A stretch of 64,000 nt of DNA, taken from positions 71,294 to 135,293 of the forward strand of contig JABJOE010000006.1 of the NCBI GenBank assembly GCA_018664485.1, read 5' to 3'. Source of the DNA: Candidatus Uhrbacteria bacterium. GTDB taxonomy: Bacteria > Patescibacteriota > Patescibacteriia > UBA9934. Shown piece after piece: positions 26,907-45,715 of the stretch (positions are counted from its first letter, which is position 1; each line of letters opens with the position of its first letter). The notes below the pieces were generated by a model. That model did not search any database, was not told the origin of the DNA, and saw only the letters and a list, made by a program, of their open reading frames with translations. A program made the translations under genes and the position numbers.

Positions 26907-29843
26907 CTAAACTACGAAGTTCATCATCCTCCCCTTCACGTAGATAACCTTCTTTACCTCCCCCTCAACGAACTTTGCAACATTTTCGTTTGCTCTTGCA
27001 GCAGCCTCAACCTCTTGCTGCGGAGCGTCGGGTGCAACCTCGAGCGTTGCTCTTAATTTTCCATTTACCTGGACCGCGAGCGTAATAACATCATCAACCA
27101 CTTGTGACTCGTCATACGCAGGCCACTTTTGTTGCTCAACAAACCCTGTAGCTCCAAGGTTCTCCGCAACTTCGTTTGCGATATGAGGGGCGAATGGGCA
27201 CAGAGTATACATGAACATCAGCAAAGACTCTTTTGTAAGTGCCTTGTGTTTGTTTACGACATTAATGAACGTCATCATCTGGGCGACAGCTGTATTGAAT
27301 CGTAAATTCTCAATATCTTCTCCCACTTTCTTTACAGTTTTATGTAACGCCTTGGTCACTTCTTTATCTTCCGAGATTGATACCATGTCTGGAAGCCTTG
27401 CGACCTTATCCAAGAAACGTCGAGTACCGATCATACCCTTAGTATTCCATGGAGCCGGCTCTTCAAAAGGTCCAACGAACATTTCGTACATGCGCAGAGT
27501 GTCCGCACCGTACTTGTCGACTACCTCATCTGGATCAATTCCGTTACCCTTAGACTTGGACATCTTCGTACCATCTTCAGCAAGGATCAAGCCATGGCTA
27601 TGTCTACGAGCATAAGGTTCGCTCACCGGGACATGACCTCGGTCGAACATCACCTTGTTCCAAAAACGAGAATATAGAAGATGCAGAACCGTGTGCTCCA
27701 TTCCACCATTATATAAATCAATTGGCATCCAGTACTCAAGCTTCTTCATGTCTGCAAAAGCTTCGTCGTTATGTGGATCAATATATCGGAGGAAGTACCA
27801 AGATGACCCTGCCCAGTTTGGCATAGTATCAGTCTCACGTTTTGCAGGACCATTACATGTCGGACACTCCGTATTCACCCAGTCGGTAATCGCAGAGAGT
27901 GGAGACTCACCGTCGTCTGTTGGCTGGTACTGATCTACCTCTGGAAGCTCAACCGGGAGCTGATCCTCGGGAACCGGAATCCATCCACCAGTTTCGGGAG
28001 AACAAGAATCACAATGGATCAAAGGAATCGGTTCACCCCAATAACGTTGGCGGGAGAACACCCAATCTCGAAGTTTATAGTTTACTGTCTTTTTTCCATG
28101 ACCGTTCTTTTCAAGCCAGGCGATCATCTCTTCTTTTGCTTCGTCTACTTTTTTCCCATCCAAGAAGTCGGAGTTGACTGACAACCCTTCTCCAGCATAC
28201 GCCTCCGCGTCAACGGATCCGCCGGACACAACCTCAACGATCGGTAAATCAAACGCCTTTGCAAACGCCCAATCTCGCTCGTCATGCGCCGGCACTGCCA
28301 TAATTGCTCCCGTTCCATATCCCATCATCACATAGTCTGCTACCCAAACAGGAATCTGTGCACCATTAGCTGGATTTACAGCGTAAGCACCAGTAAATGC
28401 ACCTGTCTTTTCTTTTGTGCCATCTCCTCGATCAATGTCTGACTTTTTTGAAGCGGCCTTCACGTAGGCCTCAACTTCAGCGCGTTTGTCATCCGTAACA
28501 ATCGTACTTACTAACGGATGTTCAGGCGCCAACACCATGTACGTCGCACCAAACAATGTATCCGGCCGCGTTGTGAAGACTTCAATTGATGGAATCAGTT
28601 GCGACAAGATAACTGGCTCTTCCTTACCGTTAAAATGACCTACCTCAGCCTCTGCTACTACCAACTCTCCTCGAAGATTGTTTGCAATCTGTACCGGATG
28701 ATCTTGAGGAACTGCCGGATCATTTTTATCTGCCAAGACAGTAAACCGTTTTGCCATTTTACTTATCGCACCAAAATCAAACTTCCAGTCACAGCAATCT
28801 CGAAGTGCTGGGCGTTCTTTTCCGTCCAATAGCTCCACATTCACAGGAGGTGCCACCATAATCACATGGCTAACCGGCGTATCCAAAGTTGGAAGTAGCT
28901 TCATAGCTGCGACACCGCCGAGCGAATGCGTGATAACAATAGTCTTCTCATTAAACGTATAGCTTTCTTTGATAAACTTGATTTGTTCTTCAATGTTTGG
29001 CTCCGATGGATTTGGCAAGTCTAAAACAGTAACACTCGCTCCGCGCCCTTCAAGCTCAGCTGACAACCATGGCCAAAACGCTTCCTTAGAATCATCCCGA
29101 AAGGCATGCAATCCAAGGATATTGTAACCACTTAAATCTGTATCAACCGTAAAATCAACTTCAGCTCCTTCGCTCCGTCCAATCCAATCCTGCTGCTGCT
29201 TTTTAATCTTTGGAAGATAGTCCACTGTGTCTAAATCATCGAGTAACCGTTGAGCGTACTTTGTAATCGCAATCATCCATTGCTCTTTGTCGCGCTTTTC
29301 AACCTCTCCTCCGCAGCGCTCACAAGCACCACCTACAACCTCTTCATTTGAAAGACCGATCTTGCATGACACACACCAGTTGATAGCCATCTTATCTTTG
29401 TACGCAAGTCCTTCTTTGAAGAACTCCAAAAACTGCCACTGAGTCCACTTGTAATAAGACGGGTCGGTTGTGTTTACCTCTCGTGACCAATCAAAACTAA
29501 TTCCAAGCGACTGAAGCTGCCGGCGGAAGGTGTCGATATTTTCCTTTGTCACCTCCTGAGGCTTTCGACCAGTCTTAATTGCATAGTTCTCCGTTGGAAG
29601 CCCAAAAGCATCCCAGCCAATCGGGTACAGAACATTAAATCCCTCCATTCGTTTTTTGCGAGCAAGAATATCGAGCGCCGTGTAGCTTCGGGGGTGACCC
29701 ATGTGCAGGCCTGACCCTGACGGATACGGAAACTCAATCAAACAATAAAATTTCTCTTTGTCAGAAAAATCTTCGGCATGAAAAACGCCCTCATCCTCCC
29801 AGCGTTTTTGCCACTTCTTATCAATCGATGAATGGTTATACAT
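26907..29843 (-). CDS. leuS: Leucyl-tRNA synthetase with an inserted RBBP9/YdeN-like alpha/beta serine-hydrolase domain before the CP1 editing domain
   Basis: 978 aa; HMGH and KMSKS class I motifs, TTRPDT and AVPAHD editing-domain motifs, C-terminus ..KKVIYVKGRMMNFVV; ~180 extra aa (aa ~236-418) containing FWPWL, LPNP, ITHSLGG, KNDPAVP, VGHF. Confidence 0.93.
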   Translation of the reverse strand: MYNHSSIDKKWQKRWEDEGVFHAEDFSDKEKFYCLIEFPYPSGSGLHMGHPRSYTALDILARKKRMEGFNVLYPIGWDAFGLPTENYAIKTGRKPQEVTKENIDTFRRQLQSLGISFDWSREVNTTDPSYYKWTQWQFLEFFKEGLAYKDKMAINWCVSCKIGLSNEEVVGGACERCGGEVEKRDKEQWMIAITKYAQRLLDDLDTVDYLPKIKKQQQDWIGRSEGAEVDFTVDTDLSGYNILGLHAFRDDSKEAFWPWLSAELEGRGASVTVLDLPNPSEPNIEEQIKFIKESYTFNEKTIVITHSLGGVAAMKLLPTLDTPVSHVIMVAPPVNVELLDGKERPALRDCCDWKFDFGAISKMAKRFTVLADKNDPAVPQDHPVQIANNLRGELVVAEAEVGHFNGKEEPVILSQLIPSIEVFTTRPDTLFGATYMVLAPEHPLVSTIVTDDKRAEVEAYVKAASKKSDIDRGDGTKEKTGAFTGAYAVNPANGAQIPVWVADYVMMGYGTGAIMAVPAHDERDWAFAKAFDLPIVEVVSGGSVDAEAYAGEGLSVNSDFLDGKKVDEAKEEMIAWLEKNGHGKKTVNYKLRDWVFSRQRYWGEPIPLIHCDSCSPETGGWIPVPEDQLPVELPEVDQYQPTDDGESPLSAITDWVNTECPTCNGPAKRETDTMPNWAGSSWYFLRYIDPHNDEAFADMKKLEYWMPIDLYNGGMEHTVLHLLYSRFWNKVMFDRGHVPVSEPYARRHSHGLILAEDGTKMSKSKGNGIDPDEVVDKYGADTLRMYEMFVGPFEEPAPWNTKGMIGTRRFLDKVARLPDMVSISEDKEVTKALHKTVKKVGEDIENLRFNTAVAQMMTFINVVNKHKALTKESLLMFMYTLCPFAPHIANEVAENLGATGFVEQQKWPAYDESQVVDDVITLAVQVNGKLRATLEVAPDAPQQEVEAAARANENVAKFVEGEVKKVIYVKGRMMNFVV

Positions 29844-45638: not shown

Positions 45639-45715
45639 GCGGCGTTAGCTCAGCTGGATAGAGCGTCTGGCTTCGGACCAGAAGGTCGGGGGTTCGAACC
45701 CCTCACGCCGCACCA
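45639..45715 (+). tRNA. tRNA-Arg (anticodon TCG), CCA encoded
   Basis: Cloverleaf: acceptor GCGGCGT/ACGCCGC, D-stem GCTC/GAGC, anticodon stem TCTGG/CCAGA with loop CTTCGGA, T-arm GGGGG-TTCGAAC-CCCTC, discriminator A, CCA. Confidence 0.9.

Follow-up and report, generated by a model that had tools for sequence, protein, structure and literature searches.

YdeN and RBBP9 are small, free-standing hydrolases. We identified a domain of this type inside a leucyl-tRNA synthetase (LeuRS), encoded by the leuS gene of a 64-kb stretch of DNA from a Candidatus Uhrbacteria bacterium (this whole stretch is called the window below). Like the inserted domain, YdeN (1UXO) and RBBP9 (2QS9, 7OEX) are ~180-190 amino acids (aa) long, adopt a minimal alpha/beta-hydrolase fold and carry an H-S-x-G elbow, an Asp and a His in this order. 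In contrast to these proteins, the domain in the window is internal to an aminoacyl-tRNA synthetase (aaRS). Its identity to YdeN and RBBP9 is only 20-25%, and it has a signature of its own, DGKxRP and CCDWKFDF.

We know of no characterized substrate for YdeN. Valacyclovir is the L-valyl ester of acyclovir, a type of bond also found in aminoacyl-tRNA and related esters, and the valacyclovirase BPHL is an alpha/beta serine hydrolase. RBBP9, the one characterized homolog that we could document, cleaves alpha-aminoacyl amides to remove N-terminal amino acids, needs a free alpha-amine, and as an aminopeptidase prefers hydrophobic and aromatic N-terminal residues (PMC8866121); it is named a valacyclovir-activating enzyme in the title of Shenoy 2020 (cited in PMC7730578). 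BPHL is described as an efficient homocysteine thiolactonase in the title of another study (PMC4198189). Going by that title, BPHL hydrolyses (thio)esters of alpha-amino acids, one of them a by-product of aaRS editing. It offers a functional analogy only, as a member of another alpha/beta-hydrolase family that is absent from the sequence and fold matches of the insert.

The editing modules of aaRSs (CP1 of LeuRS, IleRS and ValRS, YbaK/INS, AlaX and DTD) resemble the insert in being hydrolytic modules attached to, or encoded beside, a synthetase. The context is also shared, as the insert sits on CP1 and in one operon its family accompanies a YbaK-like gene. However, fold and mechanism are unrelated, the insert being a predicted Ser-Asp-His esterase, and the canonical CP1 site is still present. 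To our knowledge, no known aaRS editing site uses a covalent serine nucleophile. A further precedent is the NCBIfam model NF040702 (IleRS with an N-acetyltransferase domain), which is likewise a class Ia synthetase with an extra small-molecule enzyme domain. There the domain belongs to another family and is appended, whereas the domain in the window is inserted internally into CP1, and members of its family are found at three LeuRS sites and, in operons, beside leuS.

A serine hydrolase domain within LeuRS

The insert is a YdeN/RBBP9-type Ser_hydrolase domain (Pfam PF06821) in which both the fold and the predicted catalytic triad are intact. An initial annotation, made from the sequence alone, had anticipated PF06821 for aa ~236-418, and this segment alone matches the family with 46.3 bits (gathering cutoff 22, E 5.9e-12); within the full-length protein the score is 40.4 bits. 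Sequence matches include B. subtilis YdeN (1UXO, E 1.5e-12) and human RBBP9 (E ~7e-6). The motifs that had been pointed out are each found in the insert, namely FWPWL (aa 256-260), LDLPNP (274-279), HSLGG (306-310), KNDPAVP (373-379) and VGHF (401-404). So is the complete triad that had been claimed, with S307, D375 and H403 aligned to the HSSG elbow (S75), DDP and GHF motifs of RBBP9. The triad is conserved in orthologs (Table 1) and is complete in all 15 embedded sequences (14 loci and the window); the one aligned domain without the Asp is P0101.

AlphaFold2 (AF2) modelled the full-length protein with a mean predicted local distance difference test score (pLDDT) of 90.7 and a predicted template modelling score of 0.78. 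Within this model the insert forms a regular beta-alpha-beta pattern, with 10-residue blocks mostly at pLDDT 88-97 (minimum 81), and the domain modelled alone reaches 88.4. In a Foldseek search of the PDB the best folds were YdeN (1UXO; template modelling score, TM, 0.84, E 1.5e-10) and RBBP9 (TM 0.78-0.79), far above other alpha/beta hydrolases. Pfam and NCBIfam scans and the fold search gave only alpha/beta hydrolases, and the insert is not homologous to the known aminoacyl-tRNA editing or deacylase folds (CP1, YbaK/INS PF04073, tRNA_SAD/AlaX and DTD). The subfamily signature reads FWPWL ... HSLGG ... DGKxRP ... DWKFDF ... HF. The elements DGKxRP and DW(K/N/E)FDF are common to LeuRS-linked members and weaken across the general family.

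The host protein, 978 aa in length, is a bacterial-type LeuRS. It scores well above the cutoff of the equivalog model TIGR00396 leuS_bact (990 bits versus 548), with the profile match falling into two stretches interrupted at the insert, and it has both HMGH (aa 47-50) and KMSKS (aa 760-764). Its CP1 domain (PF13603, 204 bits) retains the editing motifs, threonine-rich TTRPDT (aa 424-429) and GTGAIMAVPAHD (aa 510-521); motifs of these types are kept across relatives, in LeuRS with and without an insert alike. The enzyme had been called otherwise canonical, which is accurate for all of these motifs but not for the leucine-specific domain, which is missing: residues ~580-622 of T. thermophilus LeuRS have no counterpart in the alignment. 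This domain precedes KMSKS in most, but not all, bacterial LeuRS and is dispensable for assignment to the bacterial type. It is also missing from the majority consensus of the aligned Patescibacteria LeuRS, which reads HGLILAEDGTKMSKSKGN, a sequence that joins the catalytic core directly to KMSKS (27552-27600 in the window).

Because the blocks aligned with T. thermophilus LeuRS end at residue 237 and resume at 243 (aa 2-234 of the window protein with 4-237, and aa 420-755 with 243-579), the insert takes the place of approximately five residues. The insertion site is the turn of the first CP1 beta-hairpin, five residues ahead of TTRPDT. The ~180 extra residues first noticed here, in frame and beside the editing domain, correspond exactly to aa 236-418. 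The closest LeuRS in the database (P0010; 767 aa, 80% identity over host columns) has no insert. In place of the insert it has the turn GSDDA, and it reads AEIDFAIDGSDDAIKVFTTRPDT where the window protein reads AEVDFTVD, the ~180 inserted residues and IEVFTTRPDT. The two loci are syntenic, each with thioredoxin reductase, glutamate dehydrogenase, a small ORF (open reading frame) and leuS, and a major facilitator superfamily transporter nearby. These orthologous loci differ cleanly in whether the insert is present. It also bears out in part the earlier suggestion of a mobile insertion tolerated in a reduced genome, as a polymorphism between close syntenic relatives. Sliding identity over 40-residue segments, examined for a recombination tract around the insert, shows the window protein to be slightly less similar to P0010 near the insert, but the measure is too noisy for such a tract to be deduced.

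Three further readings of the insert, as an assembly chimera, as a selfish element resembling an intein or as a decayed spacer with no catalytic function, are hardly credible. Its GC content at third codon positions is somewhat below that of the host (0.388 versus 0.466, a marginal difference), and its occurrence among close relatives is patchy. Against a chimera, the identical protein is present in four public sources (NCBI, JGI, ENA and nr) and on two contigs, the longest of 986 kb, the reading frame is unbroken through the insert, the syntenic ortholog without insert is clean, and 22 independently assembled species-representative genomes have the same architecture. The insert is not an artefact. 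An intein was rejected as well, with no Hint or endonuclease Pfam match in the window protein and no splice-junction residues at the boundaries (FTVD/TDLSG and QLIPS/IEVF). As for a dead insert, the conserved triad and the confident AF2 fold speak against it, as does the substitution pattern. All usable pairs are saturated at synonymous sites, and the comparison was therefore restricted to nonsynonymous divergence (dN); the dN of the insert is 0.13-0.33, similar to or below that of the host, and such low values alongside saturated synonymous sites imply strong purifying selection. The insert evolves under purifying selection.

Recurrence of the hydrolase in and beside LeuRS

Fusions were recovered with the full-length LeuRS as query; a word-indexed search with the insert only gave just four free-standing proteins and no fusions. 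Among the 120 best LeuRS matches, 44 have at least one extra segment of at least 80 aa, and these segments fall at four hotspots, sites A to D (Table 1). The architecture had been called highly unusual, which is fair relative to a textbook aaRS but does not apply within these lineages. Ser_hydrolase domains are present at sites A, B and C, so that a single hydrolase family has entered LeuRS at three separate positions around its editing domain. P0061, P0088 and P0101 have site-C domains of the subfamily that also includes the site-A domains and free-standing P0001-3. In a rough neighbour-joining tree of the host parts, LeuRS proteins that bear inserts are scattered and the nearest neighbours of the window protein have none. 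Among the site-A proteins host and insert divergence are correlated (r = 0.86), which indicates that the site-A insert descended for the most part vertically, with repeated loss or gain.

Other domains occupy the same hotspots. NUDIX domains are found at site B in many Patescibacteria and DPANN-labelled LeuRS (P0034, P0037, P0053, P0059 and others), often alongside the serine hydrolase (loci with NUDIX at site B are L019, L021-L024, L027, L028 and L037-L041). The Ham1/ITPase-like domain of site A is divergent, and Pfam and NCBIfam models match only its N-terminal half (P0024, P0027 and P0042). At L011 (5612-6229) a domain of this kind is encoded by a separate gene immediately 5' of an archaeal-type leuS. 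Two proteins carry in-frame nucleases at the CP1 hairpin, a DUF559/Vsr-like domain in P0039 (aa 271-373) and a PD-(D/E)XK domain (PDDEXK_3) in P0088/L033 (aa 277-390). These nuclease domains may have been left behind by selfish elements, and a connection with the patchy spread of the inserts is conceivable. An insertion of ~40 aa with no Pfam domain is frequent at site B of Patescibacteria LeuRS (e.g. P0008, P0009, P0022, P0028, P0029 and P0044).

Several representatives seem to start with the hydrolase, as though it were fused to the N-terminus or LeuRS were split. For P0134 the LeuRS N-terminus lies in frame directly upstream, so this is a mis-called start rather than a split gene. In two species-representative genomes, at L040 (4247-4992) and L022 (2951-3858), the N-terminal part of LeuRS is in another frame than the hydrolase and C-terminal part; LeuRS may be truly split there at the insertion site, unless a frameshift or an assembly error is the cause.

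A census of GTDB species-representative genomes was made with one conserved peptide pattern from a 7-sequence alignment and, as the pattern is a single one, is biased toward close relatives. It yielded 41 confirmed loci. The domain is embedded in bacterial-type LeuRS at 22 of them (18 at site A, 4 at site C), lies directly upstream of leuS at 2 and is free at 17. The same insertion therefore recurs in 22 species-representative genomes, and 11 of the 22 embedded genes also have a NUDIX insert. All 18 loci with at least 40% identity to the window insert are LeuRS-linked (16 embedded, 2 directly upstream of leuS). Close members of the subfamily, in Patescibacteria and DPANN-labelled genomes, are nearly always physically linked to LeuRS.

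By label, the carriers are Patescibacteria (Uhrbacteria, Falkowbacteria, Sungiibacteriota and others) and DPANN archaea (Woesearchaeota, Pacearchaeota, Nanoarchaeota and ainarchaeum). DPANN-labelled metagenome-assembled genomes (MAGs; L024, L025, L028, L029, L034 and L036) have a bacterial-type LeuRS with the hydrolase at site A, which suggests either inter-domain transfer of the fused gene or mislabelling of the MAGs. Several loci labelled 'Gammaproteobacteria' also look mislabelled.

We inspected the neighbourhoods of ten free-standing relatives, which represent nine lineages. In five of the nine the hydrolase gene is directly 5' of leuS on the same strand, at a spacing of 0-82 bp. P0001/P0002 lie 75-82 bp ahead of the gene for an 888-aa bacterial-type LeuRS in a MAG labelled 'archaeon', P0133 and P0138 are 7 bp and 3 bp ahead of bacterial-type LeuRS genes (that beside P0133 encodes 809 aa), and P0003 abuts an archaeal-type LeuRS. 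The fifth case, P0130, is in an operon (L011, 4001-8549) of overlapping or abutting genes for two Ser_hydrolase proteins, a YbaK-like tRNA_edit protein (PF04073), a Ham1-like protein and an archaeal-type LeuRS; this operon may represent a LeuRS-associated hydrolase module. No leuS is adjacent to P0004, P0128, P0132 or P0171, three of which are on contigs of at most 3.2 kb. The association of LeuRS with the hydrolase arose several times independently and covers both bacterial- and archaeal-type LeuRS.

Possible functions of the LeuRS-linked hydrolase

We tentatively favour a function coupled to LeuRS, in which the insert, by analogy with its homologs, may hydrolyse alpha-aminoacyl (thio)esters and provide an additional clearance or proofreading activity. 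This preference is based on the chemistry of RBBP9, the title describing BPHL, and the linkage to LeuRS. The domain would be an active hydrolase that cooperates with LeuRS. In line with the chemistry of RBBP9, it would act on substrates that have a free alpha-amine, either alpha-aminoacyl (thio)esters or amides. Its most likely role would be to give the synthetase a second clearance site, a serine esterase acting on the aminoacyl esters that LeuRS makes. Candidate substrates are mis-acylated tRNA(Leu) 3' ends and released non-cognate products such as aminoacyl esters and homocysteine thiolactone. Tethering or co-transcription would hold the hydrolase stoichiometric with LeuRS. Because the CP1 motifs are intact, the hydrolase would add to proofreading rather than replace CP1. 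The domain would have been inserted into permissive surface loops more than once, followed by patchy gain and loss among close relatives. A LeuRS-linked role is favoured by the three insertion sites, by the copies upstream of leuS in five lineages, once with a YbaK-like gene, and by the RBBP9 chemistry.

The same hydrolase is also found outside LeuRS. A search of 1.84 billion representatives with a hidden Markov model of the subfamily gave 3284 matches, 60 of them at E <= 1e-30. Among the best 150 of these, 59 exceed 230 aa in length; bacterial-type LeuRS is matched by 42 of the 59. The domain is internal to SecA (P0137), EngA/Der, where it lies between the two GTPase domains (P0139), TsaD (P0175), AlaRS (P0191), ValRS (P0196 and P0176), UvrB (P0260) and TatD (P0238). 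End-to-end fusions join it to Ham1 (P0221), NUDIX (P0259), peptidase S51 (P0218), glyoxalase (P0249) and DUF1653 (P0271), and tandem copies of the domain are found in P0126 and P0150. These occurrences point to a general tendency toward in-frame insertion of enzyme domains into essential proteins. At L047 (1689-4976) and L051 (3562-5588) free hydrolase genes are in tandem with up to three NUDIX genes, with no leuS near; hydrolase and NUDIX may be partners independently of LeuRS.

Several of these observations weigh against coupling to LeuRS. SecA, EngA, UvrB and TatD, in which the domain scores 104-155 bits with the subfamily profile, never handle aminoacyl esters, and the domain also occurs in the end-to-end fusions listed above. 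The 17 free loci of the census have no LeuRS within 5 kb, and all are at most 35% identical to the window insert. Distant free copies are often beside NUDIX genes (L046, L047, L051 and L061), again with no leuS within 5 kb. The alpha-amine anchor of RBBP9, Glu108, falls on a variable position of the subfamily, and the identity of the insert to RBBP9 is only ~20%. With CP1 intact, moreover, there is no editing deficit to compensate. Given the occurrence of the domain in ValRS, AlaRS, TsaD, SecA, EngA, UvrB and TatD and in NUDIX clusters, a LeuRS-specific deacylase role for the insert is plausible but unproven.

The same hosts, fusions and leuS-free NUDIX clusters favour the main rival explanation, a possible if somewhat doubtful one, that the insert is an autonomous passenger. 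It would be a general house-cleaning esterase or aminopeptidase with a substrate unrelated to LeuRS, which like NUDIX and Ham1 rides on the expression of large essential genes in tiny genomes, either embedded in loops or in operons. LeuRS also hosts NUDIX, Ham1-like, DUF559, PDDEXK_3 and NTP_transf_5-like inserts and is therefore a general insertion hotspot, and the nearest syntenic ortholog, P0010, manages with no insert. However, a passenger leaves unexplained why all 18 close relatives among the species representatives are in or next to LeuRS, and why free copies lie 0-82 bp 5' of leuS with two LeuRS types in five lineages, once with a YbaK-like gene. In addition, four of the eight non-LeuRS host proteins (seven host families, with ValRS counted twice) are tRNA-binding enzymes.

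The aminopeptidase activity of RBBP9 on hydrophobic and aromatic N-terminal residues fits a role in amino-acid supply as well. The insert would then free N-terminal hydrophobic residues, including Leu, from imported peptides at the synthetase, in organisms unable to make amino acids. A fusion with peptidase S51 exists, and the aaRS hosts all activate amino acids that are small or hydrophobic (Leu, Val and Ala). Neither the repeated pairing with NUDIX and Ham1-like domains and a YbaK-like deacylase gene nor the UvrB, SecA and EngA hosts fit this explanation, and we consider it improbable.

The co-occurrence of nucleotide hydrolase domains in the same LeuRS would fit self-protection, in which the hydrolase and the NUDIX or Ham1-like domains destroy aminoacyl-nucleotide inhibitors of LeuRS. 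The model is MccF, which cleaves the aminoacyl linkage of microcin C. The valacyclovir chemistry of RBBP9, as stated in its title, concerns a free-amine aminoacyl group on a nucleoside analogue, and the NCBIfam IleRS-GNAT model represents aaRSs fused to small-molecule-modifying enzymes. However, the insert has no homology to MccF, and we know of no aminoacyl-nucleotide LeuRS inhibitor for these organisms. Self-protection by analogy with MccF is very improbable.

The LeuRS-coupled reading can be extended to a broader proposal, which we regard as rather unlikely. The LeuRS-linked Ser_hydrolase would be a new, third kind of enzyme that proofreads aminoacyl-tRNA or aminoacyl esters, and would work as a covalent serine esterase. 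LeuRS would have recruited it several times independently in Patescibacteria and DPANN archaea, at three insertion sites and as an operon partner, and it would be part of a LeuRS-associated module with NUDIX, Ham1-like and YbaK-like proteins.

Features of the locus and significance

The features of leuS and the occupants of the four insertion sites are collected in Table 1. In an Rfam scan of the 64-kb window the sole match was a tRNA at 45639-45712 on the plus strand; the scan gave no rRNA and no riboswitch.

Table 1. Parts of the window leuS gene, with positions in the window, and domains found at the LeuRS insertion sites
Feature	Position	Strand	Evidence or occupants
leuS, bacterial-type LeuRS with insert	26907..29843	-	TIGR00396 990 bits; identical to P0005 'leucine--tRNA ligase [Candidatus Uhrbacteria bacterium]'
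LeuRS N-terminal catalytic part, aa 1-235: HMGH (29694-29705), ZN1 region, first CP1-hairpin strand GAEVDFTVD	29139..29843	-	aligns with T. thermophilus LeuRS 4-237
YdeN/RBBP9-type serine hydrolase insert, aa 236-418	28590..29138	-	PF06821 46.3 bits; 1UXO E 1.5e-12; AF2; Foldseek
Predicted nucleophile Ser307 codon (H-S-L-G-G elbow)	28923..28925	-	Ser in 23/23 aligned domains, 15/15 embedded sequences
Predicted acid Asp375 codon (KNDPAVP)	28719..28721	-	Asp in 22/23 aligned domains
Predicted base His403 codon (VGHF)	28635..28637	-	His in 23/23 aligned domains
CP1 editing domain remainder, aa 419-578: TTRPDT (28557-28574), GTGAIMAVPAHD (28281-28316)	28110..28589	-	PF13603 aa 418-578
LeuRS C-terminal half: second half of catalytic domain, KMSKS (27552-27566), anticodon-binding and C-terminal domains; no leucine-specific domain	26907..28109	-	Pfam, alignment
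Site A, CP1 hairpin			Ser_hydrolase: window, P0006-9, P0030, P0055, P0063, P0075, P0117
Site A, CP1 hairpin			Ham1-like: P0024, P0027, P0042; DUF559 nuclease: P0039; PDDEXK_3 nuclease: P0088
Site B, inside CP1 after AHDxRD..LPI			usually NUDIX (NUDIX box kept 19/28); Ser_hydrolase once: P0040
Site C, after HCxxC knuckle, before GWVPVPE			Ser_hydrolase: P0019, P0048, P0061, P0086, P0088, P0096, P0101, P0112
Site D, further downstream			NTP_transf_5-like segment: P0105

Both domains are already present in automatic annotations; JGI, for instance, annotates one such protein as 'leucyl-tRNA synthetase/predicted alpha/beta hydrolase family esterase'. The literature that we searched contains no description of hydrolase, NUDIX or Ham1 insertions in LeuRS or of an operon of LeuRS with a YdeN-family gene, and the AARS Online paper mentions none of these insertion terms. 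The components, a class Ia aaRS and a PF06821 hydrolase, are known; the architecture and the conserved association are new.

Proofreading by aaRSs is thought to depend on a small, well-catalogued set of editing folds, and here a conserved, predicted Ser-Asp-His esterase has repeatedly been recruited to LeuRS, often alongside NUDIX and Ham1-like hydrolases. In these lineages LeuRS is a natural hotspot for domain insertion, of use in protein engineering and in studying how multidomain enzymes originate. The orphan YdeN/RBBP9 family gains a concrete context, that of aminoacyl esters or thioesters. Together, these findings suggest that leucine activation in ultra-small symbionts of two domains of life, with their minimal metabolism, is surrounded by a hitherto undescribed level of quality control or by-product detoxification.

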